Below are positions 41,114-62,774 of a stretch of DNA of 64,000 bases, one piece after another. The DNA comes from Candidatus Heimdallarchaeota archaeon (lineage in GTDB: Archaea > Asgardarchaeota > Heimdallarchaeia > Heimdallarchaeales > Heimdallarchaeaceae). The stretch lies in assembly GCA_021399345.1 (NCBI GenBank), contig JAAFKI010000112.1:45753-109752 (forward strand). Direction: 5' to 3'. How positions within the stretch are numbered: position 1 is the first letter of the stretch; every line of letters starts with the position of its first letter. A model generated the notes under the pieces. It ran no database searches, had not been told where the DNA came from, and worked only from the letters and a program-made list of their open reading frames with translations. Made by a program: the position numbers and the translations under genes.

Positions 41114-42358
41114 TTAATCACTTGCGGGCATAGTAATTGGAATCTTCTTTTTATTTTGGTTAAAGCTTGTAGCTTGATTTGATTTGGATTGTTTGCTTCT
41201 ATCAGTTCTTACTTTGTCGAAACTTAGCCTTTGTATTGGTTTCCTCATGAAGTCTTCTATTTTGTTAAGCACTTCCATTTGTTCATTAGTAACTAGTGAA
41301 ATTGCTTTTCCTTCATTTTCCATTCTTGAAGTCCTTCCTATTCGATGAACATATATTTCAGGTCCTTCCCTTGGCAAATCAAAGTTGAAAATATGAGTTA
41401 CATGTGGAATGTCTAGTCCTCTTGCGGCTACATTTGTGGCTATTAAGCAATCAATTTTCTTTTCTCTGAAACTTCTCAAGACATACTCTCTTTGACCTTG
41501 TGTTTTATCACCATGCAAAGTGTTGAATCTTAAACGCAATCCTCTTTCTTGAGATAAGCGTTTTTTTAGTTTATCTGCCCATCTCCTTGTATTAACAAAG
41601 ATAATTGCGGATTTAGGACGTTCCTTTCTGAGTATAGAAACAAATGTGGAATATTTCTTGTCAGGTTTGACTCTGTAATAATACTGTTGACAGTTTTCTA
41701 CTGTTAGATCATCCTTGCTAACATTTATCTCAACCAAACTCTCACCATTACTAAACTGATGAGCAATTTTTCTTATCTGTTTAAGCATGGTAGCTGAAAA
41801 AAGTAATAAGCGAGGATAAACACCTCTCATTGCATCAAAAAGAATGTATTGGATATCTGGAAGGAATCCCATATCAAGCATTCTATCAGCCTCGTCAAGT
41901 ACTACAAACCTTACATCCCTAAAGGAAATAGCTTTTCTTCTGTATAGATCCATAAGTCTTCCTGGAGTAGCTATAACAATCTGTGCTCCAGCCTTAATCT
42001 CTTTTCTTTGTTTCTCGAGAGAGACTCCACCATATATTTCAACGGCTTTCAATTTTCTATATTTATTCAATTTAGTAAACACACTGTACACTTGTTTACA
42101 TAATTCTCTAGTAGGTACTAATACAACAGCTTGAATATATCTATGTTTAGGATTAATCTGGTTTGTTATTGGAATCGCGAAAGCTAATGTTTTTCCAGTT
42201 CCAGTTTTAGCTTGACCAAGGATATGTGTTTTTCCCCTATCAAGAAGTCTAGGAATCGCTTTACTCTGAATTTTGGTTGGATCATAAATCCCCATATCGT
42301 TTAAAGCGAGTTTAATTTGATTATTTAAATCGTAATCTTGAAATTTCATTGATACCAC
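41114..42358 (-). CDS. DEAD-box ATP-dependent RNA helicase (paralog 1)
   Basis: It has a Q-motif region, a Walker A motif (AKTGTGKTLAF), PTRELC, the DEAD motif (VLDEADRMLDMGF), SAT, and HRIGRTSR. Confidence 0.9.
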   Translation of the reverse strand: MVSMKFQDYDLNNQIKLALNDMGIYDPTKIQSKAIPRLLDRGKTHILGQAKTGTGKTLAFAIPITNQINPKHRYIQAVVLVPTRELCKQVYSVFTKLNKYRKLKAVEIYGGVSLEKQRKEIKAGAQIVIATPGRLMDLYRRKAISFRDVRFVVLDEADRMLDMGFLPDIQYILFDAMRGVYPRLLLFSATMLKQIRKIAHQFSNGESLVEINVSKDDLTVENCQQYYYRVKPDKKYSTFVSILRKERPKSAIIFVNTRRWADKLKKRLSQERGLRLRFNTLHGDKTQGQREYVLRSFREKKIDCLIATNVAARGLDIPHVTHIFNFDLPREGPEIYVHRIGRTSRMENEGKAISLVTNEQMEVLNKIEDFMRKPIQRLSFDKVRTDRSKQSKSNQATSFNQNKKKIPITMPASD

Positions 42359-44043: not shown

Positions 44044-44382
44044 TCATGCTTCTAAATTTGAATTTCTCTCTTTCAAAATTTCCAAAGATATCTCTAAAAG
44101 AAAGAAATCTTCAAGTTTTATCCAAGAAGTCTTAACAAGAATAGGGAACTCGTAAGATGTAAGGGATGTACATTTGTGGTTAGAATATGAGAAAATCTCA
44201 GGATGTCCTATTTCTCCACAGAGAAGACAAATTCGCCATCTTGCTGATGACATAGAAAGTTTTTGATAAGATTCAGAATAAAGTAATATTCCCTCTTCAA
44301 AAGGAATCTTTGACAAAATAGAACAGTATTTTTTAGCGATGGATCTTATTAGTTCTTTTTTCCTATCGGTAATGTCCGGCAT
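44044..44382 (-). CDS. Small conserved protein of novel 'MPDI' zinc-ribbon-like family (paralog 1)
   Basis: It has MPDITDRKKELIRSIAKKY, ARWRICLLCG-x12-HKC, and PILVKTSWIKLEDFF. It shares the family signature with four other copies in this window. Confidence 0.6.
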   Translation of the reverse strand: MPDITDRKKELIRSIAKKYCSILSKIPFEEGILLYSESYQKLSMSSARWRICLLCGEIGHPEIFSYSNHKCTSLTSYEFPILVKTSWIKLEDFFLLEISLEILKERNSNLEA

Positions 44383-44437
44383 ATTCCATCTCTCTGCATA
44401 AGGTGAAAAAAATGAAAGAAGATTCCGGATAGATTAA

Positions 44438-44716
44438 CTATTGTCTGAAATCTTCAGCTTGAAAAATTCCTAAGGGATAAATACCTTCAGTAGGTAAATT
44501 AGGTATCTTATCTATGATTGCTTTAATAGCATCAATATTTTTTGCATCCCATTGACAGAGAATCTTCATAATGTGACCTTTTTCATTTAAGATTGCCCAA
44601 CTTTTAACCCAGTAAGCATCAGCAGTACAGAAAGCTTTAACTCCTTGACCTATAGGAGTTGCAGCTTCAACAGGAGCTGGTTCTGGGAAAGGGTGTATTG
44701 CTAGAAATTTTGGCAT
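44438..44716 (-). CDS. Small hypothetical protein
   Basis: A 92-aa ORF beginning MPKFLAIHPF. It lies between a secreted-protein gene and MPDI paralog 1 on the same strand. Confidence 0.4.
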   Translation of the reverse strand: MPKFLAIHPFPEPAPVEAATPIGQGVKAFCTADAYWVKSWAILNEKGHIMKILCQWDAKNIDAIKAIIDKIPNLPTEGIYPLGIFQAEDFRQ

Positions 44717-44804
44717 GTTTTTTAACCTCCTAATTTTATGTTTCGATCAAATTTTCGTTTTGTTCTTTGGTGAAAAAAAAATGAAAAGGTGATTTTGCAT
44801 TCTA

Positions 44805-45464
44805 TCATAGTATAGTGAACCAAATGTCGTCAGGTGGTGTTATGAAATTGGGAATTGGCCCAGGGAATATACCCATAGGGTTCATCCAATAATATGTAAC
44901 TAAGTGATATGTACCAGGTTCTAGTGCTCCAGGCTTGAACAAAGCTCCTACATTAAACCACCATAATATTGGGTCACCATGGATATCAACACCAATACCT
45001 TTCTTAAGTGGTGTATATGTCATTTCCAGTGGTTCTCCGTTTAAGGTAGCAGTGGTAGTAAACCAAGAGAGATACTCCATACATCCTTTGTTGATATTAT
45101 CATATGTGAAAATAACTCCAAAATAATACCACATAATGAATTGAGCTAATTGAAGAACATTTTCAGTTACGTAAATTGCTCCATAAATACCATGAGCATC
45201 TTCATAGTTGTAAGTCAATCCATCGTACCATGGAACAATTCTTCCTCCATTAAATCTACCATCAAGAATTGCAGGTAATGTTTCTCTTTCAATAACATCG
45301 AACTCAGCGTTGAATGTCAAAGAATTTCCACCGTTTAGCATTGCATTGAAACTAGCTACAACGTCTCCATAAGTAACATAGTCATTTGCAGCAGCAACAG
45401 GCAGTAATCCAAAAAGTAGAATGCAAAATCCACTCAGCAAGATTACAGTTTTTTTCTTATTCAT
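44805..45464 (-). CDS. Secreted hypothetical protein
   Basis: It has a signal peptide (MNKKKTVILLSGFCILLFGLLPVAAA) and is Trp/Tyr-rich. Confidence 0.5.
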   Translation of the reverse strand: MNKKKTVILLSGFCILLFGLLPVAAANDYVTYGDVVASFNAMLNGGNSLTFNAEFDVIERETLPAILDGRFNGGRIVPWYDGLTYNYEDAHGIYGAIYVTENVLQLAQFIMWYYFGVIFTYDNINKGCMEYLSWFTTTATLNGEPLEMTYTPLKKGIGVDIHGDPILWWFNVGALFKPGALEPGTYHLVTYYWMNPMGIFPGPIPNFITPPDDIWFTIL

Positions 45465-45607
45465 TTTTTAACCTCCAAATGAATATGCAACATAACAGGA
45501 CACACATATGTATCTTGTTTTGCCACATACATATGTGACAAGAATAGACGCATATAAAAAGTTTTCTCAAAAAAATTGCGATTCTATAAAAATAAAAGAA
45601 AGAAAAA

Positions 45608-46048
45608 TTATACTCGTTCTTTTTCAGTTGCAGGAATCTTCGTTTGTTCTGATTCCTTTGTTTCCTTTGATATTTTAGTAACCAAGGTCAGTGAGGGGAG
45701 TCTATCGATACCTGCTTCCTTCATGAAGTCCTTGTAAGTATCTGTTAAGAAGAATTCCTTTAGTTTATACCAAGAGGTTTTAATGAGAACCGGAAAATCA
45801 TGCACGTCTAATAAACATTTGTGCTTTTCTAACTCTTCTCCTTCCTTTAGATCTTTCTGGGTTTTGGATTTCAGTATATCTCCACATTTTAAGCAGAATT
45901 TCCACCTTGCGGGATGTATATTTAACTTTTCATTTGTTTTCACATAGAGAATCAATCCTTCGTTAAAAGGTATCCTCCAAATAGAGACAGCATATTGTTT
46001 TGCTATCTCCCTAATCTGTGATTTTTCAGCATCAGTTATATCTGGCAA
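45608..46048 (-). CDS. Small conserved protein of 'MPDI' family (paralog 2, probable TTG start)
   Basis: The ORF-track start at 46087 adds 13 residues. The family-conserved N-terminus (L)PDITDAEKSQIREIAKQYA begins at a TTG codon at 46048. It has ARWKFCLKCG-x19-HKC and PVLIKTSWYKLKEFF. Confidence 0.6.
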   Translation of the reverse strand: MPDITDAEKSQIREIAKQYAVSIWRIPFNEGLILYVKTNEKLNIHPARWKFCLKCGDILKSKTQKDLKEGEELEKHKCLLDVHDFPVLIKTSWYKLKEFFLTDTYKDFMKEAGIDRLPSLTLVTKISKETKESEQTKIPATEKERV

Positions 46049-46207
46049 TGAAAATCCTACTCCTACGTGTACTAGAATCTGACACATATAATAAATCTTC
46101 TGTATAACTTAGGTTTAATGATCTAGTAAGTAAATTATCTCAAATTATTGGAAAGTATTATAAAACCTGGTGAGTTAATATTGTGATTAAACAGTTGATA
46201 GAGCAAG

Positions 46208-48130
46208 ATGAAAGGAATTTTCGTTAAAGAGTTAGAAGAGATAGAATCGCTCATAGATAAGGGAAAGTATAACGTGGCTTTAGAGCATATTGATTCAACA
46301 TCATCTCAGGAAGCAATTTCTGCAGTGGAGAAGACAAAATGTACTATTTTTAGATATCGGGTATATTCTGAATTAGCTAAGTATGCTGAAGCTATAAAGC
46401 TTGGTGAAAAAGCCTTTGAGGAAAGCCAAAAACTAAATAATAAACACCTAATGTTTGATTCACTCGTATATTTTCCTTACATTTACTTTATTGCTGGAGA
46501 ATATGAATTGAGAAAGGAAAAAGTTAAACTTGCAGGTCAAATACTTGAATCAATTGAAGATAAAGATTCTTCAGATTATTTTCTCAGAAAAGCTATATTT
46601 CTAACTATGAAAAGTGATAGTTTTGAACAAGCTATAGAAAATCTTGAAGAAAGTATTGAAATCTCTAAGAAATTTGGATTTGATAGAATATTAGTTGATT
46701 CATACCATACGCAAGCTTGTACTTATCTTTGGTCTGGAGGAATCACAAAATCTCTTAAACTAAATCAACAAGCATTAGGTCTTGCTGAAGAAATAGATTA
46801 CTACTGGGGAATCACCAGTGCTATGTTTTCTTTAGCCGTTACCTATTTGCATAAAGGGGAATTAGAACAAGCCCTGGATTATTTCTTGCAAACAAAAACG
46901 CTAATTGAAGAAGGTGATGACTTATATTTTATAGCCTGCTTGTATTTGGATCTAGGTTATTTATATTGGTTAAAAAGAGATCTTAAATCCTCACTTGATT
47001 ATTATAAGAAATCTGTTTCCACTTTTAAAGAAGCTAAAGTTGTAAGTACACGTCATTTACCATGGACTCTATTCCGAATGAATTTAGTTCTTATTGAAAT
47101 GGAACATTATGATGAAGCACTCAAGAATATTGAACAGATTGAGCTCTTATTCCTAATGAAAGATACTCCTGTTTTCAAACTATTCTACCATCTTGCAAAA
47201 GCTGTTTTTCTTAAAACAAAAACAGATGATGATTGTTGGAATGAAGCTACACTTCTTCTCGAGGAAGTTGCTGATGAAGAACTTGTTTATCTTGAGTTAA
47301 ATGGTTTAGTAATCTTCCATCTATGTGATGTATATCTAAAGAAAATACAAACTTCAAATGATTTGGATGCATTTGGGAAACTAAAAAATAGGATACAAGA
47401 GTTAGCAGAAATGGCTAGAGAGCAAAAATCTGTCATTCTGCTTGTTCAATCTCTCTTGTTGCAATCAAAGCTAGAACTAATTGATTTAGACATTGAAAAA
47501 AGCCAATCGCTATTAGGAAAAGCACAATCTATTGCAGAGGAAAAAGGACTTACTAAACTTGCTAAGGTTGTTTCAAATGAATTTGATATTCTCTTAGATC
47601 AATTGAGTACTTGGGAAGATATGTCAACGTATTTACCAAGCTTAGAAGAAAGGTTTGAATTTACTCATATTGAAAATTATCTAAACAAAATGATGAGAGA
47701 CTATATTATACATGAAAGCATTGTTGATGAAGAAGAAGCACCAGTATTTTTCTTACTGCTGAATAAGGAAGGAGTCATTCTGTTTTCTGAGAAATTCAAT
47801 GAAGTATCTCTGGAAGGTGAATTACTTGGAGAAATATTATCATTTATCAATAGACTCAATTCAAGATCAATGTTTCCGTCTGAAACAACCAAGAGGATAA
47901 AACATAAAAATTATACAGTTGCGATTAATGCTCAAGAAGACATATTTCTAGTATATGCTTTCATTGGAAAATCTTATCATGCTTTGCAGAGAATAAATTC
48001 CCTCATCAAGGAATTTCGCACTTTTACAAGTGGGTGGCAGGAGTTTTTTGGTAAACTAAAGAACAAGGAAGAGTTGTCTTATTCTGATAGAAAACAATTA
48101 TCTGAATACCTAGAAGGTGTTTTTTTCTAA
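46208..48130 (+). CDS. TPR-repeat protein with conserved C-terminal alpha/beta domain (family member A)
   Basis: It has about 450 aa of TPR-like helical repeats and a conserved linker (LSTWEDMSTYLPSLEERFEFTHIENYLNKMM). Its C-terminal domain of about 130 aa (PVFFLLLNKEGVILFSE...IFLVYAFIGKSY) is shared with 48164..50302 and 56944..58890. Confidence 0.72.
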   Translation: MKGIFVKELEEIESLIDKGKYNVALEHIDSTSSQEAISAVEKTKCTIFRYRVYSELAKYAEAIKLGEKAFEESQKLNNKHLMFDSLVYFPYIYFIAGEYELRKEKVKLAGQILESIEDKDSSDYFLRKAIFLTMKSDSFEQAIENLEESIEISKKFGFDRILVDSYHTQACTYLWSGGITKSLKLNQQALGLAEEIDYYWGITSAMFSLAVTYLHKGELEQALDYFLQTKTLIEEGDDLYFIACLYLDLGYLYWLKRDLKSSLDYYKKSVSTFKEAKVVSTRHLPWTLFRMNLVLIEMEHYDEALKNIEQIELLFLMKDTPVFKLFYHLAKAVFLKTKTDDDCWNEATLLLEEVADEELVYLELNGLVIFHLCDVYLKKIQTSNDLDAFGKLKNRIQELAEMAREQKSVILLVQSLLLQSKLELIDLDIEKSQSLLGKAQSIAEEKGLTKLAKVVSNEFDILLDQLSTWEDMSTYLPSLEERFEFTHIENYLNKMMRDYIIHESIVDEEEAPVFFLLLNKEGVILFSEKFNEVSLEGELLGEILSFINRLNSRSMFPSETTKRIKHKNYTVAINAQEDIFLVYAFIGKSYHALQRINSLIKEFRTFTSGWQEFFGKLKNKEELSYSDRKQLSEYLEGVFF

Positions 48131-48163
48131 ATATAAAAATAATCAAAACGTTATTCCAAGAAA

Positions 48164-50302
48164 TTAAATAAGATATTGTTTAACAAGTGATGATAATTGA
48201 ATCCTAGTTTCTAAATCGATGTTTTTCTTATTTAGCACAAAATCATTCAGAGTATTTGTGATGTCAGAATCTGAGAAATAATCCACGAATCGGGTAAATT
48301 TCTGTTTAGCTAAAAATGATTTGCCAACAAAAACATAACAGAGGAATAATCCTTGAGATTTCGATAAAATACACATAAATTCACGAAATTTAATTCGAAT
48401 TATAGAAACATCAGTTTCTAATAGTTCTCTTCTTTCTAGAATCTTAGGATATAAATCTGAAAATTTGGTTTCCTCTAAAGTTCTAGATGAGAATGAATCT
48501 GAAAATTCTATTCTCCCCTCATTATTAAAAATTATAAAGAAAATAGGTTGTTCTTTTTCGATTATAACATCCGTGTAGTTAACCCATCTAGTCATCACTT
48601 TACTCAGAATCTCCTCAATGTGAGTTGTTTCAAAACGTTCTTCCAAAGAAGGCAAACGATCGGAAAGGTCATCCCAGACATCTAATTGTTCCAGAAGAAC
48701 ATCATATTCGTTAGAAATAAGTATCTCTAGTCTCTTCAATCCTTTTTCATTTGCTAGTTTTTGAGCTTCTTCAAGTACATTTAACGAATCTTCAACATTG
48801 AACTCTAATATAAATAATTTAGATTGTAAGAAATATAATTCTATTAATAATAAGAAGTTTTGATTACTTTCCGCTATATAGGAAAGATTCTTGATATTTT
48901 GTTTTAATTCTCCAATTAGTTTCATGTCCTTAGTATCTTTAAATTGTTCAAGTAAAATATCACAAAGATAAAGGTAGGATTTCTCTGTTGCTTTAAAGAA
49001 CGAAATTTGATCTTCAATCACTTTTTCAAAAATCTCTTTAGCTTTTGGTTGATTCTCTTTATTATATCTTAGAAAGATAGCCTGACTAACTTGATAATAA
49101 ATGGATATCCTCTTATTTGGATTTGACTCATTAAGTTTAGCTAGCTCAAACAAGTATTCTTCTGCTTTTACAAAATTTCTTTGTTCAGCATAAAATGTAA
49201 TTAGGTTGAAATAAGCCATCGCAACATGAATAGTACATTCATATTTTTGTCTAAATTCTAAGCTTTTCTTACTATATTCTATTGCTTGATCCAATTCTCC
49301 TTTTTGATAAAAAGTTTCTCCGAGATAGCCGTAAGCATCTCCCAAAGTAAGAAATTGTTTTGAATCGTGAAAAGCTTCCAGAACAAACTGATAGTTTTCT
49401 AGAGCTTCTGAAAGATTTCCATGGTAATAGTTTTTACACCCTCTGAGCAATTGTCTCCACCCCACATAAGAATCGCTACTTAATCCTTTCTCATAAAGAA
49501 TAGCCAACTCTTCATATTTTGAGCTATTAATCATGTCTCCACTATGAACATAAGCAAAACTCAAATGTATCATTGAATGCCATTTTCTATATTGAGAGGT
49601 AGATTCTTTTGCGTATTCTAAGTATTGAAGACCATAATCTATTGCTATTTTAAAGAATCCCTTTTCAGTATAAGCATACCTAAAGCAAGCTAAAGATCTC
49701 ATTATTAGCTCTTTATAATTGAGTTTTTTAGCAAGTAAATGCAATTCTTGAGATTTCTCTATAGATTTATCAGAATCACCCACATACATCAATGACCAAC
49801 ATAAATCATTCAAAAATTCTGAATAATAGAACTCTTCATTGAAATCTCTTATTATATTCAGAATTGTTTCTAAATAGTGGTTAAAAAGAGAGAATTGGAT
49901 ATTATACTTATATTGAAATTTTGTTTTTGCTTTTAACAAGATAATACATTTATGTCTTACTTCTTTTGATTGCTTTTTTAGCAAGTTTCTTGTTTTTAGT
50001 TGTAAAGTTTCAGGAATTTTGGAACTAGAATCCATTAATTCAATAATTTCTAATTCCATTGGTGGAGCAATATCTTCTAGAAGTTTATTTGTCTCAGCTG
50101 TTAATTCATCTCTGTCTCCAAAAAAATCAACTCTATCGATTAGAAGCATTCGCAAGATTAATGTTTCAAGCCTTTGAAAAGGGGTTATTCTGTCATTCTC
50201 TTCAATTTCTTTTATTAAGATTGAAAAGCTCCTGTGTTTTTCACTAATCAAGAACTTCTTAGCTAATTGTAAATTAGATTGTAGAGACGGCATTTGAAAC
50301 AT
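48164..50302 (-). CDS. TPR-repeat protein with conserved C-terminal alpha/beta domain (family member B)
   Basis: It has TPR repeats, a linker (LDVWDDLSDRLPSLEERFETTHIEEILSKVM) and the C-terminal domain (PIFFIIFNNEGRIEFSD...LFLCYVFVGKSF). Confidence 0.72.
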   Translation of the reverse strand: MFQMPSLQSNLQLAKKFLISEKHRSFSILIKEIEENDRITPFQRLETLILRMLLIDRVDFFGDRDELTAETNKLLEDIAPPMELEIIELMDSSSKIPETLQLKTRNLLKKQSKEVRHKCIILLKAKTKFQYKYNIQFSLFNHYLETILNIIRDFNEEFYYSEFLNDLCWSLMYVGDSDKSIEKSQELHLLAKKLNYKELIMRSLACFRYAYTEKGFFKIAIDYGLQYLEYAKESTSQYRKWHSMIHLSFAYVHSGDMINSSKYEELAILYEKGLSSDSYVGWRQLLRGCKNYYHGNLSEALENYQFVLEAFHDSKQFLTLGDAYGYLGETFYQKGELDQAIEYSKKSLEFRQKYECTIHVAMAYFNLITFYAEQRNFVKAEEYLFELAKLNESNPNKRISIYYQVSQAIFLRYNKENQPKAKEIFEKVIEDQISFFKATEKSYLYLCDILLEQFKDTKDMKLIGELKQNIKNLSYIAESNQNFLLLIELYFLQSKLFILEFNVEDSLNVLEEAQKLANEKGLKRLEILISNEYDVLLEQLDVWDDLSDRLPSLEERFETTHIEEILSKVMTRWVNYTDVIIEKEQPIFFIIFNNEGRIEFSDSFSSRTLEETKFSDLYPKILERRELLETDVSIIRIKFREFMCILSKSQGLFLCYVFVGKSFLAKQKFTRFVDYFSDSDITNTLNDFVLNKKNIDLETRIQLSSLVKQYLI

Positions 50303-50434
50303 CCAAATTAGAGATTTAACACGTTAAATACATTTTTGCATATAAATTTCTTATGCTTAAGAATCAGTACTTACATGAATCAAAACTAAATCTTCAGAAA
50401 TATAAACAAAAAAAGGAAAAATGAAGGTATTGGA

Positions 50435-51778
50435 CTATTTCTTCCTACTTCTTCTAATTACTAGAATTATTATAGAAATTGAGGTTAGGAAAAATACTAA
50501 ACCAATCTTTTGTGAAAGCTCAGGGACTATAAGGGGGGTTCCTAGAGGATAAGGGTCAACAGAACTGGCTGTTCCAGCAATGACATAATCTCCGCCGTAC
50601 CAGTTATTCCACCAGTTTCCTTCGTTGGTAGTAGTATCAAACCAAATGTTGTTAGCTCCAGAATCACTTGCTTGAGAATTTCCAATATTATTATCTATGA
50701 AATGATTATGGTGGATAATTATATTAGAAACAGCAACATCAAGAACTATACCAAAGCTTGGGTGCTGTTGAATAGTATTGTAGGTTATATTGGTGTTAAT
50801 TGTACTTTGCAATTCTAATCCAAAGACCTCACTTCCAATAAAGGAATTATTTGAGATTTGAAGATTTTCAGAATTAATAACAAGAAGGTTATTTTTTTCA
50901 TTTGCTTCAAAGGTATTGTTAATTATATCTGCATAGGAGACAATATTCATAAATATACCCGCAATTTCCCAATGTTCGAAATCAGGAAGTCCATCCATTG
51001 CTATGTTCTTCACTATGTTTTCTTTAACCAAAATTCTATCAGAATTTGTTATATAAATCCCTGCGAAGAGAGTACTTTCTTCAAGATTCATATAGTTCTC
51101 TGTAATGTTAGTGTCTGAGCAATCATAAACAAATATTACTGAATAATCTTCGGGGTCATCGCTATATTTAAGATAATTTCCAGGTTCTTCTGGGTTTGAT
51201 CGAAGTTCGTTTTCAAAGTTGTTTTTGAATGTCAAGCTTGGAGGAACTAGTTTGTAAATATCATTGTTTTTTATTCTTGAATTAGTACAATTTTTCAGAA
51301 TGATACCCTTAACATATACGAGAGTATTATCCTCAATTACTGTACCTTTAGAATCTTCAACATAAATGCCGTTTCCTAATAGCATTAAATTGTTGTTAAT
51401 TATCTTAGCCGTGTTACTTTTAACATTTTCAATTAATATTCCAGATAATGTTGAACTAACTCCTAATCGGGAAATCTCGTTGTTTCTAATTTCAAAGTAT
51501 TTTGTTGTATTTGCAACAGTAATTCCAGATTCACCTTCCCCCACCTCAATATCTTTACCTTGTATGATGTATGGATGTGTTTCATTTCCATATCCAGGAT
51601 AGCTAGCAAAATCTGAATCATCGTCAATCAATATAATAGGATCAGCCTTTATAGAGGGCAAAAGATCATTTTGAGAAAAAGCATTAGTGGTGGTAATCAT
51701 ATTACTAGGGAGAAGAAATAACAGAAGTAGTATAGAAAAAATTGTTATTGATAGTATTTTTTTATTTTTCATTTTCAC
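50435..51778 (-). CDS. Secreted parallel beta-helix protein with C-terminal TM anchor (paralog of 31874..33577)
   Basis: It has a signal peptide and beta-helix rungs (NNNLMLLGNGIYVEDSKGTVIEDNTLVYVKG...). Its C-terminal GDYVIAGTASSVDPYPLG parallels IEGDGGSIDLYPFL of the 31874 protein, and it ends with a TM helix plus RRSRKK. Confidence 0.65.
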   Translation of the reverse strand: MKMKNKKILSITIFSILLLLFLLPSNMITTTNAFSQNDLLPSIKADPIILIDDDSDFASYPGYGNETHPYIIQGKDIEVGEGESGITVANTTKYFEIRNNEISRLGVSSTLSGILIENVKSNTAKIINNNLMLLGNGIYVEDSKGTVIEDNTLVYVKGIILKNCTNSRIKNNDIYKLVPPSLTFKNNFENELRSNPEEPGNYLKYSDDPEDYSVIFVYDCSDTNITENYMNLEESTLFAGIYITNSDRILVKENIVKNIAMDGLPDFEHWEIAGIFMNIVSYADIINNTFEANEKNNLLVINSENLQISNNSFIGSEVFGLELQSTINTNITYNTIQQHPSFGIVLDVAVSNIIIHHNHFIDNNIGNSQASDSGANNIWFDTTTNEGNWWNNWYGGDYVIAGTASSVDPYPLGTPLIVPELSQKIGLVFFLTSISIIILVIRRSRKK

Positions 51779-51880
51779 ACCTTAGTTTTGTAACTTTTTT
51801 GTCACACCCTATGTAATGTATTTGCTACATATAAGTATTTTGTAGAATAGGTAAACGAAAAGTAAATATAAAAGATTCGT

Positions 51881-52321
51881 TCATTTAGATTCTTCGGATA
51901 TTGCTTCAGAAACTTCTGTTTTGATCGCTTCGGCTTTAACTTGTTTAACAACAATTTTAAGTTTAGGTATCTCAGATAATCCAATCTCTTTTAGAATCTT
52001 ATTGTGTTGCTTTTGGATTAGGAAGAATTTTCGTAGTTGAAACCATGAGGTTTTTACTAATAAAGGGACATCTTCAAATTCCAAAATGCAAGAATGATTG
52101 ATTGTTTCATCCTTAGTTTTTGTATCTCTACCTAGAGTAGTTTTGAGAATCAAACCACATTTAAAACAATATCTCCATCTTGCGGGATGAATAAACAGTT
52201 CGTTGTTTGTTTTAACATATGCTACAATACCTTTATCAAAAGGGATAGTCCAAAGCTCTTGAGCATATTTTTTCGCTATTTCCCGAATTTCAGATTTATC
52301 TGAAGCAAGTATATCTGGCAT
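51881..52321 (-). CDS. Small conserved protein of 'MPDI' family (paralog 3)
   Basis: Starting at the internal Met (52321) gives MPDILASDKSEIREIAKKYA. It has ARWRYCFKCG-x19-HSC and PLLVKTSWFQLRKFF. Confidence 0.6.
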   Translation of the reverse strand: MPDILASDKSEIREIAKKYAQELWTIPFDKGIVAYVKTNNELFIHPARWRYCFKCGLILKTTLGRDTKTKDETINHSCILEFEDVPLLVKTSWFQLRKFFLIQKQHNKILKEIGLSEIPKLKIVVKQVKAEAIKTEVSEAISEESK

Positions 52322-52444
52322 GAGAATCACTCTTCTGTTGAGGGTGTACTAGAACAAGTTACATATAAGTTTTCTTTTATCTGAAAAAACCTCTTTTTGA
52401 ATCCATTGGAGTAGATTTAAGAAATAATATGCAATAACTGTTAT

Positions 52445-53050: not shown

Positions 53051-54091
53051 TTACTTCTTCACAATTTTTCTACTTAACAATGTTATTGCTAAAACTGATA
53101 CTGAAGTAATTGTCACTATTTCGATTACTCCAAAACCTGCTTTATCAATTACAGGATCTTCTAATGTTCCAACTGAAGGGTCATATGTTACTTCATCATC
53201 AAAGTGCTCAAAGCTCAAGTATGTTTGGACAGAACCATCGCCTAAGGAAGAGACTGAACAATTAACTGTCTTGTATTCATAAGAATTGTTAATCAAGTAT
53301 TGGGCTTGATTTGCATAAGCGAAGAATGCTTGGTATTGTTCTTCACCAATAGAGATCTGCTCTTTTACTGCGTCTCCATGGTTGAGTACTTTGTATTCAT
53401 AGCCGGTTGTGTTTTCATTTGCGTTTATAGGATTACCATTAGTATCGTTGAGTCTATAATTGTATGCTGTATTCATTGGTATGAAATCGAATCGTAATGC
53501 AAGGTTTGAATCTTCTCTTTGCCATGGCCAATTATCCATGATAATATCAAATTTCATCTCTTGACCACCCTTTAATTCATATCCATCGATTACTTGATCA
53601 GCTAGATATAGATGAACAACAATTGTGATCTCAAAATCACCATAATTAGGTGCATTGATTGTTTCAGAAGTATAGTTGAAATGAACAGCAGATAGTTCTT
53701 CAGTTCCTTCAGTATATTCAACATCAAAACCACTGAAAATGAATCTTACACTTGATAATGGGAGTGTGTTTGAGAATACTGGACCTGGTGGAGCTTCTTC
53801 CTTCCATAAACCTGTTTCATTAAACTGGAATACTCCATCTTCATTATAATCTAGATATTCAGTAAGTGAATGGAACATAACATTGTATTCAAATCCTGCA
53901 TCTGTCATAAATTGGAATTTAGGAACTTGCCCTCCAGCTTTGGCAATAAAGTGCATGTCATAATAAGAAAATGTCACTTGGTTGTTATCTTCTATCCATA
54001 AGAAGTCTTGATCATCTGCACTTACTTGAGTAACTACAAGTAATGCTAGAAACGCTAAACCGATTGTTATTTTGATTGCTTTGTGTTTCAT
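53051..54091 (-). CDS. Secreted surface (glyco)protein with C-terminal TM anchor
   Basis: It has a signal peptide, at least six N-x-S/T sequons, and a C-terminal VIEIVTITSVSVLAITLLSRKIVKK. Confidence 0.5.
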   Translation of the reverse strand: MKHKAIKITIGLAFLALLVVTQVSADDQDFLWIEDNNQVTFSYYDMHFIAKAGGQVPKFQFMTDAGFEYNVMFHSLTEYLDYNEDGVFQFNETGLWKEEAPPGPVFSNTLPLSSVRFIFSGFDVEYTEGTEELSAVHFNYTSETINAPNYGDFEITIVVHLYLADQVIDGYELKGGQEMKFDIIMDNWPWQREDSNLALRFDFIPMNTAYNYRLNDTNGNPINANENTTGYEYKVLNHGDAVKEQISIGEEQYQAFFAYANQAQYLINNSYEYKTVNCSVSSLGDGSVQTYLSFEHFDDEVTYDPSVGTLEDPVIDKAGFGVIEIVTITSVSVLAITLLSRKIVKK

Positions 54092-54214
54092 TTTTGCTCA
54101 GCATTTCTTATTCTTCCCTTTTTGAATAGGTTCTCATTTATACAACCAAAGTTTGATTACTTTAGAAAACTAAAGTTAGTGAAAATAAGAAAAAAAGAAG
54201 AAAATAACATAACA

Positions 54215-55582
54215 TTATGTTATGCTCATATCTAAAGTTAGAAAGGCATGAGAATCTGAGATAGACCAGTAAACAGGAGGAAGTGGATAGCCATATAGTG
54301 GAAACATCCAATAATTTGTCCCTACTATAGCCATAGTTCCATAACCTGCCACATTTAGATAGAGAAGGTCATCTTCTAGTGGTGGGAATTCAGATTTCGC
54401 AATTTTGAACTCAAACATCCTATGATCTTCTGCACAATTTTCACTAGAACCATAAGAATAACCAATATCATAGTTTCCAGAAGCAATGGTGTTACCAACT
54501 ATCGATGCTATGTCACCCCCTGTGATTCTAAGTGAAAGTTTATCGATTTGGAGTTCATATGCAGTTGGAACTACATCTTCATCATTCCAGCAGTGAATTG
54601 TGAAATAAAACATTCCATTTGAAGCATTGATATTATTATGATTGAGGTCTACTGAACCGCTTACTATTGTATCTGCAGCGAAACTTATTTCGTTAACATC
54701 ATTTAGAAATGTACCTTCACTCATGTTTCCTGGTATTCCACCGTGTTCTGCAAAAGAGCAATAAAACTCATCAGGTACTCCAAAGTGTCCTACTGGATTT
54801 GAGGTTAAATTAGCTTTTAGTCTATATTCTAAATCCATATCAGTTACACTTGCCATGAACAATCCAATTATTTCATCTGGGATCTTTTCAGTGATATTGA
54901 CTCCAAATTGGATATCTAAGAAGTCTCCTGCCAACCAAAATCCACCACTCTCATAATTATAAGAACTTCCTGTATAGTTGCTGTTATCATATTCTGTCCA
55001 GAAATCATAAAAATCTCCAGTTGTATTTCCTCTAAGTACTTCTAATGTATCCATTTCTGGTACAATCGGGATATCTGGGTAAACATGTGTGCTAGGAATT
55101 GGATTTAATTCAAAATCGAACACATTATCACCACTTACATTATAGAATAAATACTCATATCCATAATCTTCTAATGAAAACAAAGCGAGTTTCGAATCCC
55201 AAGTATCAGGTAAACGATTTGCTAAGTGAAAAGCAAGCCATTCACCGTCTTCATTATTCGTTCTGTCAGAACATAAGTCTAATGCAATATAGTAGAAATC
55301 ATCATCTTCCGCTACCGAAAGGTAATTCCATCCATCTACATTGGCCAAGTCTACGACTGGATCAATTTCATTATCTATATCTAAGTAAAATGGTATATTA
55401 TAGTACGAACTTTGTAACCATTCACGTTTCTCAATTACACCATCAATTGTTGGAGTAATTTTAGCTGGGTCACTATTAAACTGCCAATCATTCCCCATTA
55501 GCCATCCTACAAAGAAAGCACCCCCACCAATAGCTAAAACAAGGACAATTGCAGTTACTTTAATACTTGAACTTTTTGACAT
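54215..55582 (-). CDS. Secreted/anchored hypothetical protein
   Basis: It has an N-terminal signal anchor (VTAIVLVLAIGGGAFFVGWLMG) and many N-x-S/T sequons. Confidence 0.5.
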   Translation of the reverse strand: MSKSSSIKVTAIVLVLAIGGGAFFVGWLMGNDWQFNSDPAKITPTIDGVIEKREWLQSSYYNIPFYLDIDNEIDPVVDLANVDGWNYLSVAEDDDFYYIALDLCSDRTNNEDGEWLAFHLANRLPDTWDSKLALFSLEDYGYEYLFYNVSGDNVFDFELNPIPSTHVYPDIPIVPEMDTLEVLRGNTTGDFYDFWTEYDNSNYTGSSYNYESGGFWLAGDFLDIQFGVNITEKIPDEIIGLFMASVTDMDLEYRLKANLTSNPVGHFGVPDEFYCSFAEHGGIPGNMSEGTFLNDVNEISFAADTIVSGSVDLNHNNINASNGMFYFTIHCWNDEDVVPTAYELQIDKLSLRITGGDIASIVGNTIASGNYDIGYSYGSSENCAEDHRMFEFKIAKSEFPPLEDDLLYLNVAGYGTMAIVGTNYWMFPLYGYPLPPVYWSISDSHAFLTLDMSIT

Positions 55583-56524: not shown

Positions 56525-56947
56525 GTGATAACTCAAAATGACATGGTGAACATAATGACTGCTGAAACTGTGGAGTTGAAATTCGATCAAGAAGAGATAG
56601 ATAAAGCTGAGGAAGAATACAAGAAGCTTCATCTAGATCCTGCTCAACAAGACATGGTTGACTCCATAACAAAAATCATGAATGAACTGGTGCCAATACC
56701 TGAAGCAGCTATTAAGGGATTCACATGGAAAGTCATGAGTAATTGGCAGAGGATGCGTAGAATTACAATAGCCGAGTTAAATAATAGACCTCTAAGAGAT
56801 AGAATAGAGGTAACTAAAGAGATGATTAAGCAAGCAAAGAAATTTTTTGTTAGTCTTCTTTCAGAATCTACACCTGAGCAGAGAGAGATACTGGAAAGAA
56901 AGTTTGATACGGTTTTAAAACAAAGCTCAGAGTTATTGAAAAATTAG
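56525..56947 (+). CDS. Hypothetical protein
   Basis: A 140-aa helical ORF with no motifs. Confidence 0.35.
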   Translation: MITQNDMVNIMTAETVELKFDQEEIDKAEEEYKKLHLDPAQQDMVDSITKIMNELVPIPEAAIKGFTWKVMSNWQRMRRITIAELNNRPLRDRIEVTKEMIKQAKKFFVSLLSESTPEQREILERKFDTVLKQSSELLKN

Positions 56948-58890
56948 ACAAAGATTGATTCTAAATAATCAGATAATCTTGTTCTGTCAGACAAACTCAG
57001 TTCTTGATTGGAGTTTATTTTTGTGCTTAAATCACCCCAGATTTCTGAAAATGTGCTAAAATCAGTGATAAGTTTCTTTATTTTCTGTACAGCAGAATAA
57101 GATTTACCAACAAAGACATAACTAAGTAGCATATTTTCACTGTGATAAAGAACTATGCCAAAATTCCTAAATTGAAGACGATAAGAAGTGTTTTTATCAG
57201 GTTCTTTTTCTTCTAGAAAGTCATGTATTGTAGTTATTATCCCCTCAACTAAATCATTTTCTAGAGGAATATCTTCAAAATTATCTGAAAAGACAACATG
57301 ACCAGTTTTATCCATAATCAGGAAAATACTTGGATCTTCAATTTCATGAGAAACATCTGCAAAGCTTATTCTATTCTTAATTAGCTTATTCATCATATCC
57401 TCTAAATGAGTTAACTCCATACGATCAGCAATATTTGGAAGTTTAGTAGTGAAACTTTCCCAGCTGCTAATTTGTTCTAGAAGATGATCGTATTCATTAG
57501 AAATTAGTGTCGCTAAGCGAGTTATACCTTTTTCATCTGCAATATTTTGGGCTTTTTCTAACATTATTTTTGCTTCTTCAATTTTAAGTTCTATTAGTGC
57601 TAAATGAGATTTGAGCATATAGGTTTCAGCAAGTAAAACCGATGATTTCTGCTTTTTTGCAAGTTCATCTAGTTGATTTATAGTTTGTTTAAGAGGTAAA
57701 AGCAATTCTAAATCGTTGGTCTGTTTCAATCTTCGAAGATAAAAATCACATAAATGAAATAAAGCCATCCTGTTCATTTCTATATAAATCAACTTCTCTT
57801 GAACAATCTCCTTCAACATTTTTTCTATTTTATCTTGATTATCATCAAAAGAACGCGCTTTAAGATAGATAGATTGAGCTAGATTGTAAATATGCACTAA
57901 GGGATAGCTTTCAACACTTGCATCTTGCAAACTTCTAATAGTAGCGACTATTTCCATTTTTTCTAAGTTTTGTTTTATATCTTCGTATTTTCCTTGTTCA
58001 AGATAAACTAAATTTGTTCTGAAAAGTACAGCAAGATAATGTCTATTTCCAAAAAGCTTCCCTCTTTTTATTTGCCCTAACGATTTCTTATAATATTGTA
58101 ATGAAGTTTCCAATTCCCCTTTTTGCCAATAATAGAACCCTAAATCAGCATATATTGCACCCAAGCTGTAAGAAGAATCAATCTCTTCCGCATATGATAG
58201 TGCCTTCAATGAGTATCTAAGATATTCGTCTAGTTCTCCTTTTTGAATAAAAACTGCTGCAATATTAGTTGTACATGCAATAATTCCCACAATATTACCT
58301 AGTTCTGTAAAAATCTTCAAACTTTGATTATAATAATTCCCACTCTTAGAATAATCCCCCTGTTCAAAAAAAGCATAAGCTTTGCCAAATAGATGCCAAG
58401 CTTTCTGATACTCGTCTCCTACTTGTTCAAATATATCTATAGCTTGATCTATTTTATCCATGTATTTTTCTGATCTACTACTAATCCCAAATGTAAGAAT
58501 TCTTGCTTTCCTTTTGAGATATTCTGGTGATTCTTTATCCTTGTATTTTTCAAGAACTTCTATTGCATGCTTCATTTTTTCGCTAGCTGATTCGCCTATG
58601 CCTAAGTAGCTAGAGGATCGAGCATAAGCCATAGCTGAATCGAAAATTAAGAATGTATCACCGATTTTGACACTTTTTTCATAAGCTTGTTTAGCATTTT
58701 CTAATGCCTCAGAGAATGGTTGAATATCGAGAAATATTTTTGCTTTGAGGATTTTTGCTTGAATAATTTCTTCTTCAAGAAGTTCCTTTCTTTTCAGAAG
58801 ATTATTCAATTGTTTTAGAGATTCTTGATACTTACTGCTAATAATTAATTGTTCTATTTCTTTTAGTTCAGTAGAAAATACCCCTTTCAT
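56944..58890 (-). CDS. TPR-repeat protein with conserved C-terminal alpha/beta domain (family member C)
   Basis: Its N-terminus MKGVFSTELKEIEQLI parallels MKGIFVKELEEIESLI of member A. It has the linker ISSWESFTTKLPNIADRMELTHLEDMMNKLI and the C-terminal PSIFLIMDKTGHVVFSD...LLSYVFVGKSY. Confidence 0.72.
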   Translation of the reverse strand: MKGVFSTELKEIEQLIISSKYQESLKQLNNLLKRKELLEEEIIQAKILKAKIFLDIQPFSEALENAKQAYEKSVKIGDTFLIFDSAMAYARSSSYLGIGESASEKMKHAIEVLEKYKDKESPEYLKRKARILTFGISSRSEKYMDKIDQAIDIFEQVGDEYQKAWHLFGKAYAFFEQGDYSKSGNYYNQSLKIFTELGNIVGIIACTTNIAAVFIQKGELDEYLRYSLKALSYAEEIDSSYSLGAIYADLGFYYWQKGELETSLQYYKKSLGQIKRGKLFGNRHYLAVLFRTNLVYLEQGKYEDIKQNLEKMEIVATIRSLQDASVESYPLVHIYNLAQSIYLKARSFDDNQDKIEKMLKEIVQEKLIYIEMNRMALFHLCDFYLRRLKQTNDLELLLPLKQTINQLDELAKKQKSSVLLAETYMLKSHLALIELKIEEAKIMLEKAQNIADEKGITRLATLISNEYDHLLEQISSWESFTTKLPNIADRMELTHLEDMMNKLIKNRISFADVSHEIEDPSIFLIMDKTGHVVFSDNFEDIPLENDLVEGIITTIHDFLEEKEPDKNTSYRLQFRNFGIVLYHSENMLLSYVFVGKSYSAVQKIKKLITDFSTFSEIWGDLSTKINSNQELSLSDRTRLSDYLESIFV

Positions 58891-62483: not shown

Positions 62484-62774
62484 TCGTGTATCTTTTTAAT
62501 CAAACTAAGTATCATTATGACGAATGTTTTCGCTTCAAATTTTTTCATAGTTTTAATTTTTGAACAAGATAGAAATTCTATTTTTCTTATCTTCTTCAAC
62601 TCTAAGCTACTTAATTTTTCTAGCTTTAAAAGACTTTGTTATTGCAACTTTAAGAGCTAAACCTTCTAATACTGAAATTCATCAGAATGGAAAAATTTAG
62701 GAGAAAGAAAGAGGTCACTACATAATACTTATAATTTGTACAGTATTCCAAGTACAAAAAGTTGAATGAAGAAT

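Follow-up and report, generated by a model that had tools for sequence, protein, structure and literature searches.

A lineage-specific island of MPDI, TPR–longin and surface-protein genes in Heimdallarchaeota

Gene content of the island

The stretch of DNA analysed here (the window, 64,000 nt) belongs to a Heimdallarchaeota MAG whose lineage includes AB_125. Five MPDI genes, one of them frameshifted, and three paralogous TPR genes lie between 44 and 64 kb, so that every copy of either family in the window (5/5 and 3/3) is packed into 20 kb. This region forms a gene island specific to the lineage of AB_125-like Heimdallarchaeia and is composed of three expanded families: MPDI, TPR–longin and variable surface proteins. 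The MPDI, secreted-protein, 92-aa and TPR genes of the original prediction are all present in the ORF list at the same coordinates, although the fourth MPDI gene, the frameshifted fifth and the third TPR paralogue had been overlooked.

MPDI proteins are small and cytoplasmic (110–160 aa), with a helical core around a single predicted zinc site and, frequently, an acidic disordered tail; a hydrophobic N-terminus or signal peptide is absent. MPDI-1 (44044..44382, minus strand; 112 aa; ORF, paralogy and tree) belongs to a short subfamily without the C-terminal tail, and is joined by MPDI-2 (45608..46048, minus; 146 aa; ORF, alignment and AF2 model) and MPDI-3 (51881..52321, minus; 146 aa; ORF, paralogy and alignment). 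These three are true paralogues (41–48% identity, BLASTP E 1e-20 to 1e-45), and identities among MPDI paralogues overall are 35–48%. MPDI-2 has a TTG start; the in-frame ATG upstream at 46087 falls inside the TATA box, and the start position is occupied by ATG in two orthologues (L009 and L010) with TTG retained in the others. The frameshifted gene (62773..63134, plus), placed by paralogy and tree in the short MPDIPNKEK subfamily, has an intact 120-aa counterpart in a close relative (L025), and the remaining gene (63162..63641, minus; 158–159 aa), a member of the MPKIS subfamily by paralogy, alignment and tree, carries a long insertion in its zinc loop.

Clustered at 50% identity, the family amounts to 23 clusters in a set of 1.84 billion proteins, and at 90% clustering there are 31 matches, every named one of them Heimdall or Asgard. 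Searches of Pfam, NCBIfam, PHROG, PDB and BFVD gave no match, making MPDI an orphan family. A CxxC…HxC site is invariant across the alignment, with its ligands spaced C-x2-C-x20-45-H-x-C; in MPDI-2 the putative CCHC site is C52/C55/H76/C78 and the disordered tail ends ..PATEKERV. Two invariant Trp residues adjoin the ligands (ARW[KR].C..CG and TSW), Arg/Lys residues are conserved, the core is mildly basic (pI 7.6–9.5, compared with 4.5–6.0 for the seven neighbour products computed), and the tail ends are kept within subfamilies (..EKE[RG][VI] and ..EES.). The earlier label of zinc ribbon is not established: a zinc ribbon is defined by two zinc knuckles (usually CxxC plus CxxC) on two beta-hairpins that form a three-stranded sheet, together with a profile match, whereas MPDI has one CxxC…HxC site, Pfam matches below threshold and a fold that matches nothing in PDB. 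We also note that Pro2 is invariant in MPDI alignment A1. An N-terminal-proline enzyme (tautomerase superfamily, Fpg/Nei), a type whose strictly conserved Pro1 is catalytic, was considered and rejected, as whole subfamilies begin MADM or MTDM, the AF2 model is helical from residue 6, and there is no match to those families.

TPR-A (46208..48130, plus; 640 aa), identified by Pfam and domain layout, is a cytoplasmic protein in which a TPR_12/MalT-like array is followed by a conserved helical linker (SNEFD..LPSLEERFE.THIE) and then by a eukaryote-like longin domain at approximately residues 510–640 (DNA 47735–48127). It lies divergent from MPDI-2, as predicted, with a spacing of 159 bp rather than 160 bp. 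Two paralogues complete the set: TPR-B (48164..50302, minus; 712 aa; paralogy and Pfam), located 3′ of the beta-helix gene and 29% identical to TPR-A over 468 aa, and TPR-C (56944..58890, minus; 648 aa; paralogy), which is 35% identical to TPR-A; the pI of all three is 5.0–5.5. The TPR assignment comes from Pfam (TPR-A, TPR_12 at 61.1 bits with a cut-off of 30.1; TPR-B, TPR_MalT at 51 bits with a cut-off of 45), and the longin assignment is made at the fold level, from a beta-beta-alpha-beta-beta-beta-alpha(-alpha) topology and structural similarity to known longin domains; the C-terminus of TPR-B aligns with A2. What had been described as a sensor-like domain at the TPR C-terminus is this longin domain. 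The longin, Sedlin, Sybindin and Clat_adaptor_s profiles of Pfam and NCBIfam give nothing at E <= 0.1 for the C-terminus, and there is a weak profile match of the longin domain to AP-4 sigma1 (E 0.055).

The surface proteins are more diverse. The secreted protein sec219 (44805..45464, minus; 219 aa) has an N-terminal signal-like hydrophobic segment, lacks a C-terminal anchor, and matches no known family. The gene at 50435..51778 (minus) encodes a surface-anchored right-handed beta-helix (NosD-like) protein, a member by Pfam of Beta_helix (3e-17, 63 bits) and NosD (1.5e-16, 60.9 bits), with an N-terminal signal-like segment, a C-terminal TM helix and a polybasic RRSRKK tail. Two more, s346 and s455 (53051..55582, minus), were recognised by signal and TM features, s346 having a signal peptide and C-terminal TM anchor and s455 an N-terminal anchor; neither has a known family, and both accompany the island in other genomes. 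The island's surface proteins are variable; they carry a signal peptide and, in most cases, a TM anchor at the C-terminus with a polybasic tail. A PE[FLY] motif immediately precedes the TM helix in beta-helix proteins. No archaeosortase-type CTERM sorting domain (NCBIfam) was matched among the window's own proteins, and matches elsewhere are sub-threshold: Heimdall-CTERM for a surface protein of locus L014 (17.9 bits, cut-off 24) and Loki-CTERM for a beta-helix orthologue (13.7 bits, cut-off 19.9). A small cytoplasmic protein, p92 (44438..44716, minus), has a sub-threshold match to Pfam PF14026 (SCO4226-like, dimeric alpha/beta-barrel type; E 2.6e-4, 21.5 bits, cut-off 28.5) and is found inside the module of other genomes at 81–100% identity.

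Gene order and its statistics

One gene order was proposed to occur twice on the minus strand; both arrays are there, but their two secreted proteins are non-homologous to each other by BLASTP. The suggested check, whether related genomes conserve the neighbourhood, proved positive: the orders are kept in more than 15 Heimdallarchaeota MAGs with the surrounding genes reshuffled, about 35 related loci keep them, and all 31 genome loci with MPDI belong to Heimdallarchaeota-type MAGs. The divergent TPR-A and MPDI2 pair is present in 10 loci, the order MPDI2, sec219, p92, MPDI1 in 8–10, MPDI3 followed by the beta-helix gene in seven (sometimes with TPR-B next), and the beta-helix gene followed by TPR-B in at least eight. 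Orthologues of sec219 lie 3′ of MPDI2 in nine further loci (L004–L010, L036, and L029, which carries the module's 3′ part), counting that of L008, which is slightly under the signal-peptide threshold. Gene orders persist down to about 55–60% MPDI identity, and the deepest MPDI branch (L033, 33–38% identity) still adjoins a TPR–longin gene divergently. In L014 alone, MPDI is followed by Ig-like or beta-propeller surface proteins, non-homologous ones, and then by TPR–longin. Breakpoints fall between gene pairs and not inside them. The compared genomes are fairly close relatives (their DEAD-box helicases are 68–95% identical), and part of the synteny may therefore be plain inheritance.

In the window a same-strand surface-protein gene follows two of the five MPDI genes, which is marginal by within-island permutation (P = 0.054). 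In related genomes it follows 16 of 68 MPDI genes (24%) versus 28 of 415 other genes (6.7%), with an uncorrected Fisher p of 8e-5 that is inflated by shared ancestry; collapsing that ancestry to distinct subfamily/neighbour combinations leaves 6 of 36 (binomial p = 0.03). The enrichment of surface-protein genes after MPDI has moderate statistical support, modest once shared ancestry is removed, and the claim that the neighbourhood is not random holds at this level across genomes but only marginally for the window alone. The inclusion of TPR genes in the unit is not upheld by proximity in these loci, a TPR–longin gene lying within three genes of 25% of MPDI genes versus 29% of other island genes. 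The MPKIS, M[AT]DM and short MPDIPNKEK subfamilies are usually without a surface-protein neighbour. A second recurrent neighbour is a DEAD-box helicase, of which the window has two copies, paralogue a (41114..42358, minus; ORF and locus comparison) and another 60% identical to it (61185–62483, minus), each positioned 3′ of an MPDI array; an MPDI gene followed by a DEAD-box gene is about as recurrent as one followed by a surface-protein gene.

Promoters and transcription units

The MPDI-2 promoter (46067..46098, minus) contains the putative TATA element TTATTATATGTG and then TTCTAGTACAC, an element common to the upstream region of MPDI-3, where it follows CTTATATGT (52344..52375, minus). Some 10 nt past the TATA element is CTAGTACA, specific to the MPDI2 and MPDI3 clades; it occurs 28 times in 519 kb of loci, and 15 of these are in promoters of those clades (13 assigned automatically and two by context). 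In the sec219 promoter and leader (45498..45560, minus) a TATA-like TTTTTATATG is followed by the palindromes GTCACATATGTATGTGGC (at 45539–45522; pattern match 45522–45539) and GATACATATGTGTGTC, and tandem palindromes between TATA element and start are kept in eight orthologous promoters; the palindrome pattern shows no window-wide enrichment. The beta-helix gene has its own TATA element (~51835–51827) with TTACAT/TGTGAC repeats, and TTACAT/TGTRAC elements recur in beta-helix promoters.

Intergenic gaps measure 102, 132, 143 and 88 bp, with T-runs after the preceding stop codon in all four and a TATA-like TTATATG[TC] in three, before the beta-helix, TPR-B and sec219 genes. To judge from these gene-by-gene TATA-like elements and T-runs, the individual genes appear to have their own promoters and a single operon is unlikely; we have rejected a single transcription unit, which the internal TATA-like elements, T-runs and gaps of up to 143 bp make improbable. 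The sole pair that looks co-transcribed is p92 and MPDI-1, probably so because the gap between them is 55 bp and has no TATA element for MPDI-1.

Regulation, inheritance or trafficking

We infer that regulation of surface proteins is the most likely function of the cluster. The specific form that we put forward, tentatively and as a possibility rather than a probability, is a separately transcribed, co-regulated local module in which MPDI proteins regulate adjoining surface-protein genes with TPR–longin as a partner. Its ancestral unit would be a divergent TPR–longin and MPDI pair with an adjoining surface-protein gene, which may have been multiplied by segmental duplication with the surface gene swapped. 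The MPDI proteins would be local, paralogue-specific regulators, either nucleic-acid-binding or adaptor, and the TPR–longin protein a cytoplasmic sensor or scaffold partner whose TPR groove possibly binds the MPDI tail; the genes would be transcribed separately and co-regulated, not as one operon. Consistent with this are the narrow distribution common to MPDI and TPR–longin, an adjacency kept despite rearrangement and the enrichment of surface-protein genes immediately 3′ of MPDI, and there are hints in the gene-own TATA-like elements, the sec219 palindromes, the beta-helix-promoter repeats, CTAGTACA, the basic MPDI core, the position of the longin domain and the tail ends kept per subfamily. 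Against it are the modest statistics, TPR–longin genes that are not closer to MPDI, the equally recurrent DEAD-box adjacency, several MPDI subfamilies usually lacking a surface-protein neighbour, the fairly close relationship of the genomes, and palindromes tied no more to MPDI than to another factor.

Possible, if somewhat unlikely, is that the synteny was inherited without functional coupling, an old block of MPDI, surface-protein and DEAD-box genes having been segmentally duplicated so that the order is a by-product; tandem expansion of lineage-specific families would have followed within a plastic island, the arrangement not being under selection. The 60%-identical DEAD-box paralogues 3′ of MPDI arrays, the crowding of five MPDI and three TPR–longin copies into 20 kb, the marginal permutation and ancestry-collapsed values, the lack of TPR–longin enrichment, the close relatedness of the genomes and the promoter belonging to each gene all fit this explanation, as does the close relative L005, which lacks the beta-helix and TPR-B pair between MPDI3 and TPR-A, suggesting that units are dispensable. 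However, old paralogues (MPDI 35–48%, TPR–longin 29–35% identical) are still linked, breakpoints spare the pairs, the order is retained with non-homologous surface proteins, and the most divergent MPDI retains its divergent TPR pair.

The TPR–longin proteins themselves can be compared with several known systems. In signalling proteins of bacteria, arrays of the MalT/TPR_12 type come fused with kinases, cyclases and phosphatases. The N-terminal array of TPR–longin resembles these in matching TPR_MalT and TPR_12, but the host is an archaeon and the C-terminus is longin instead of a kinase, cyclase, NTPase or HTH output domain, none of which was found in the TPR proteins by Pfam. Full-length relatives are restricted to this Heimdall lineage, and weaker TPR-A matches outside it span the TPR array alone of bacterial TPR-histidine kinases, cyclases and PP2C phosphatases, so that the longin domain occupies the place of the output domain. 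Lineage-restricted fusions to promiscuous repeat domains are typical of Asgard multidomain longin/Roadblock proteins, which count as eukaryotic signature proteins, TPR is among the longin companions, and published longin+TPR proteins are tied to Vps28-C plus adaptin-appendage or two-component domains (10.1101/2020.10.19.343400; PMC10936438). The window's proteins share the longin topology (beta-beta-alpha-beta-beta-beta-alpha-alpha) fused to a repeat domain but have no Vps28-C, adaptin-appendage or two-component domains by Pfam, and an association of longin with the MPDI family and surface-protein genes finds no mention in the literature that could be searched.

A small GTPase is the usual longin partner. 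None was found by Pfam in window ORFs of at least 90 aa other than the short one at 35752–36036 and those nested antisense in larger genes, or among the called genes of homologous loci. We therefore rejected a GTPase–Roadblock/longin regulatory pair, there being no adjacent Ras/Arf/MglA-like GTPase gene in either; the genes differ in this from Asgard longin/Roadblock systems, from MglA/MglB-type GTPase–Roadblock pairs and from the eukaryotic longin GEF/GAP complexes TRAPP, Mon1–Ccz1, FLCN and GATOR1; a single longin domain also stands in place of heterodimeric or tri-longin arrangements. Rap–Phr/RNPP cassettes offer a looser analogy, with multiple paralogous TPR and small-gene pairs per genome and secreted products encoded nearby, but MPDI appears to be a folded zinc protein without a signal peptide, not a pro-peptide, and sec219 is a 219-aa protein; a quorum-sensing cassette of this type was rejected, since MPDI has no hydrophobic N-terminus and neither an HTH nor a response-regulator-binding domain is present in the TPR proteins.

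It is improbable that the cluster is a trafficking or biogenesis module in which TPR–longin, with MPDI as accessory, acts on adjoining surface proteins in targeting, sorting or anchoring. By analogy with the longin-fold subunits of the eukaryotic adaptor (AP sigma/mu), SRP-receptor (SRX) and TRAPP complexes and with TPR co-chaperone receptors, TPR–longin would recognise, for example, nascent chains or the short polybasic tails on the cytoplasmic side. The weak AP-4 sigma1 match, the type-I anchors and polybasic tails of the neighbouring surface proteins with their sub-threshold CTERM matches, and the same-strand order of surface-protein and TPR–longin genes in at least eight loci would suit such a role. 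Yet a like C-terminal anchor is present on surface proteins at 31874–33577 and 34665–35504 that have no MPDI or TPR neighbour, sec219 has none, the 64-kb window yielded no small GTPase, and the longin fold by itself is no proof of trafficking; general secretion must serve hundreds of proteins, which would make an adaptor dedicated to each surface protein unusual. It is also improbable that MPDI proteins serve the adjacent DEAD-box RNA helicases as RNA-binding cofactors of the CCHC zinc-knuckle type, with surface and TPR proximity incidental: MPDI followed on the same strand by a DEAD-box gene in four subfamily/paralogue combinations and at many loci, the basic core, the conserved Arg/Lys and the two Trp by the zinc ligands are in keeping with it, but the CCHC spacing and fold are unlike known zinc knuckles, other genes intervene in several genomes, and the helicases seem, Pfam DEAD/Helicase_C being ubiquitous, to be housekeeping-type and widespread beyond the MPDI lineage.

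The clustering of MPDI, surface-protein and TPR–longin genes is a real, lineage-specific and previously undescribed gene association. There is a small chance that TPR–longin, with MPDI as a zinc-binding accessory, provides dedicated cytoplasmic adaptors for the neighbouring C-terminally anchored surface proteins. If so, this would be prokaryotic, GTPase-independent cargo recognition by longin, encoded beside the cargo in an archaeon closely related to eukaryotes, and would offer a tractable model for adaptor-like or SRX-like longin functions arising before endomembranes.

Gene organization around the MPDI genes

All of the open reading frames named in the original prediction were found exactly where it had placed them, including those for three small proteins of the orphan CxxC…HxC family MPDI (MPDI-1, 44044-44382; MPDI-2, 45608-46048, with a TTG start at 46048; and MPDI-3, 51881-52321), which are paralogues as proposed (41-48% identity, E 1e-20 to 1e-45), and for two large proteins with TPR_12 and TPR_MalT repeats, TPR-A (46208-48130) and TPR-B (48164-50302). 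The count of such genes was too low, however, and the window has five MPDI genes and three TPR paralogues. A further MPDI gene lies at 63162-63641, and another, of the short MPDIPNKEK subfamily, is frameshifted at 62773-63134 (plus strand) into ORFs 62773-62931 and 62832-63134; the corresponding gene in L025, a locus of a close relative, is intact (120 aa), and the split marks either a pseudogene or an error of assembly. The third TPR paralogue, TPR-C (56944-58890, minus strand), is converged upon by the gene for p140, a 140-residue protein of no known family (56525-56947, plus strand), with their 3′ ends overlapping by 4 bp. This pairing is kept in most related loci; at L017 and L023 the p140 gene is instead divergent from an adjoining MPDI gene.

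We compared gene order using the six-frame ORFs of all loci, classified against the families of the window, and find that the predicted neighborhood is conserved in related genomes, with MPDI-linked orders recurring across loci. The divergent pair of TPR-A and the MPDI2 clade is present at 10 loci, and the order MPDI2, sec219 (a secreted protein), p92 (a small cytoplasmic protein), MPDI1 at 8-10. MPDI3 is followed by a beta-helix surface protein gene (Pfam Beta_helix and NosD domains) at seven loci, the next gene encoding either TPR-B or a DEAD-box helicase; three genomes have the order MPDI, p92, beta-helix (335 aa), TPR-B, and in two to three genomes an MPKIS-type or MPxxKD-type MPDI precedes a beta-helix protein of ∼325 aa. 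At L014 the same order is seen but with different surface proteins, as MPDI, a 4-TM protein, an anchored Ig-like (Big_13/PKD) protein, MPDI, an anchored beta-propeller (SBBP) protein and TPR–longin. The proteins encoded after MPDI-2 and MPDI-3, both described as secreted in the original prediction, are unrelated to each other. Even the most divergent MPDI gene, at L033, forms a divergent pair with a TPR–longin gene. The flanking racemase, MFS transporter, M20 peptidase and methyltransferase genes are reshuffled among genomes, with the breakpoints falling between conserved pairs. At L005 (7213-9849; 93-97% identity) the beta-helix and TPR-B pair (window 48164-51778) is missing between MPDI3 and TPR-A, and this two-gene unit is therefore an indel, present or absent within the island at ∼44-64 kb.

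Several other genes adjoin members of the family. A small multi-TM protein (∼130-140 aa) is encoded at 40524-40934 (minus strand), near the helicase gene at 41114-42358, with a homologue between MPDI and surface-protein genes at L014 (4073-4462), and a second, unrelated 4-TM family adjoins MPDI genes at four loci (L024, L025, L009 and L029). The MPDITNTEK-type MPDI genes of L041 and L032 have no surface-protein neighbors and are divergent from an FAD-linked oxidase gene flanked by ETF genes (L041, 5769-7406), which has homologues in L032, L025 and L040; at L025 the oxidase homologue follows an MPxxKD-type MPDI gene of the same strand. Elsewhere in the window, a 191-residue protein (25374-25949, minus strand) has a RING finger at its C-terminus (zf-RING_2, E 6e-7), which belongs to the eukaryote-type ubiquitin system and is expected in an Asgard genome, and a 988-residue protein (10613-13579, minus strand) joins a response-regulator receiver (31.5 bits, cut-off 30.2) to PPDK_N, the pyruvate phosphate dikinase ATP-binding domain, an unusual fusion.

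The MPDI, TPR–longin and surface proteins

Database annotations assign the homologues of MPDI-2 and TPR-A to Candidatus Heimdallarchaeota or Asgard group, and TPR-A is 100% identical to an NCBI MAG protein annotated 'tetratricopeptide repeat protein'. A GTDB scan with one genome per species places MPDI genes at 31 loci, all in Heimdallarchaeota-type MAGs, including AB_125, whose lineage we take to be Kariarchaeaceae. AB_125 represents a separate lineage according to Liu et al. (10.1101/2020.10.19.343400). When 1.84 billion cluster representatives were searched exhaustively with a HMMER profile, only 23 MPDI clusters were recovered, all single-domain proteins of 57-156 aa, and searches of Pfam, NCBIfam, PHROGs and PDB sequences gave no match. 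In the 23-member alignment the invariant residues are P2, I4, K9, I12, F28, G31 and A47-R48-W49 in the N-terminal part, followed by C52, C55, G56, H76, C78, P86, T91-S92-W93, L96 and F100, with a single predicted CxxC…HxC metal site and a variable loop of 20-45 residues. The AlphaFold2 model (mean pLDDT 74; 82-93 at residues 1-60 and 89-93 at 91-110) predicts two N-terminal helices, a CxxC-bearing hairpin, a third strand, a pair of short helices and a disordered tail. With a pI of 7.6-9.5 the core is mildly basic; computed values for seven neighboring gene products are 4.5-6.0. Neighbor-joining resolves about eight subfamilies, two of which have conserved extreme C-termini (..EKE[RG][VI] and ..EES.). 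A catalytic N-terminal proline of the tautomerase or Fpg-like kind was rejected, since some whole subfamilies start with MADM or MTDM in place of MPDI and the fold also differs. A viral or mobile-element origin was rejected, there being no PHROG or BFVD match and no integrase nearby.

In the TPR proteins a MalT/TPR_12-type array is joined through a strongly conserved helical linker (SNE[YF]D..LL.QL..W……LP.[LI]E[ED]R[FM]E.TH[IL]E) to an alpha/beta domain at the C-terminus, which has a faint sequence-profile match to AP-4 sigma1 (E 0.055). Thus what the original prediction called a sensor-like domain is a longin domain. Relatives of TPR–longin that match over the full length are confined to the same lineage as MPDI, and a metagenome scan for more distant loci yielded only five, all from that lineage; beyond these, TPR-A matches only through its TPR array, to bacterial sensor kinases, cyclases and PP2C phosphatases.

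N-terminal hydrophobic signals are present in four of the window's surface or secreted proteins, sec219, s346, s455 and the beta-helix protein; two of them, s346 and the beta-helix protein, have a C-terminal TM helix followed by a polybasic tail. In the beta-helix protein (window segment 50435-50560, minus strand) and its orthologues a PE[FLY] motif directly precedes the C-terminal TM helix, and surface-protein orthologues give sub-threshold NCBIfam matches to Heimdall-CTERM and Loki-CTERM sorting domains. No homology was detected between p92 and p95, both small and alpha/beta-barrel-like.

Transcription signals and candidate operators

A TATA-like element, TTATATG[TC], is found in each of the intergenic gaps preceding sec219, TPR-B and the beta-helix gene, together with T-runs after the upstream stop codons, and a single operon thus appears unlikely from the sequence. 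The gap before p92 has a T-run and GGAGG and no clear TATA element, and that between p92 and MPDI-1 is the only one without any signals of its own. Upstream of MPDI-2, an in-frame ATG 13 codons before the start falls within the TATA box, and the codon at the MPDI position is ATG in two orthologues (L009 and L010) and TTG in the others. The upstream peptide MCQILVH, present in many database gene calls, is not a true N-terminal extension; it is the translated TATA box and conserved CTAGTACA promoter element.

The element CTAGTACA(C) is common to MPDI2-clade and MPDI3-clade promoters, ∼10 nt past the TATA element, and these promoters account for 15 of its 28 occurrences in 519 kb (13 assigned automatically). 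In the window MPDI-2 and MPDI-3 have the identical 11-mer TTCTAGTACAC ∼10 nt past their TATA boxes (46067-46077 and 52344-52354, minus strand), and orthologous promoters conserve it. The sec219 gene has two tandem palindromes, GTCACATATGTATGTGGC and GATACATATGTGTGTC (45498-45540, minus strand), between its TATA box and start, kept in eight orthologous loci, and beta-helix promoters retain TTACAT/TGTRAC/GTTACA repeats (51801-51835 in the window). Both sets look like candidate operators, those of sec219 for a dimeric factor. They are not a window-wide regulon, and we found no link between them and MPDI specifically. We rejected a regulon motif common to MPDI, TPR and surface-protein genes: CTAGTACA is restricted to MPDI2/MPDI3-clade promoters, the palindrome GTNACA-N5/6-TGTNAC is not enriched in the window, and ATATGTGTC occurs only once.

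Regulation, descent or sorting

A surface-protein gene on the same strand comes next after MPDI in 16 of 68 cases, against 28 of 415 for other genes of the same loci (odds ratio 4.3, Fisher p = 8e-5, with orthologues counted that are not independent). When the cases are collapsed to distinct subfamily/neighbor combinations, 6 of 36 have such a neighbor, compared with a baseline of 6.7% (p = 0.03), and a permutation test on the window alone gives p = 0.054. TPR–longin genes are not enriched, lying within three genes of 25% of MPDI genes and 29% of other island genes. We tentatively favor a lineage-specific module with an MPDI/TPR–longin partner pair as its core, in which MPDI, small and basic, would serve as a local regulator or adaptor, TPR–longin would provide a signaling scaffold, and the pair would control the adjoining surface-protein genes.

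It is also possible, and only slightly less likely, that the arrangement is inherited synteny with no coupling. Two DEAD-box helicase paralogues with 60% identity (41114-42358 and 61185-62483, both minus strand) are each found immediately 3′ of an MPDI array, the pattern expected from an old segmental duplication. Taken with the statistics, this indicates that the association of MPDI genes is real and conserved, and that descent can account for part of it. It is doubtful that TPR–longin targets or sorts the anchored proteins: the same C-terminal anchor is present on surface proteins far from any MPDI gene, and so is not specific to the module, and no small GTPase, the usual partner of longin domains, is encoded in the window or the homologous loci examined. 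That MPDI is a zinc-knuckle cofactor of DEAD-box helicases seems quite improbable, even though MPDI followed by a helicase gene recurs at many related loci in four combinations, about as often as MPDI followed by a surface-protein gene.

The case for membrane-trafficking precursors in Asgard archaea draws on eukaryotic signature protein domains that include longin, and to our knowledge almost nothing is known of the roles of longin domains in archaeal cells. Lineage-specific fusions of longin with signaling or repeat domains have already been described in Asgard genomes (10.1101/2020.10.19.343400), and proteins containing Vps28-C have been noted to carry TPR alongside longin (PMC10936438). The TPR–longin proteins here are without ESCRT, two-component or GTPase parts and are linked to an orphan zinc-protein family and surface-protein genes, a combination that we did not find in the searchable literature. 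Because both families are confined to one uncultured Heimdallarchaeial lineage, the significance may be local rather than general. The locus nonetheless supplies concrete, genetically linked candidate partners for one archaeal longin family, namely an orphan zinc protein for which no relatives and no known fold are detectable, a variable set of surface proteins and conserved candidate operators, and turns a vague domain annotation into specific, testable questions of binding, localization and expression. If the link is regulatory, a eukaryote-type domain would be wired into a prokaryote-style local control circuit; if it is one of protein sorting, it would bear directly on the origin of cargo adaptors.
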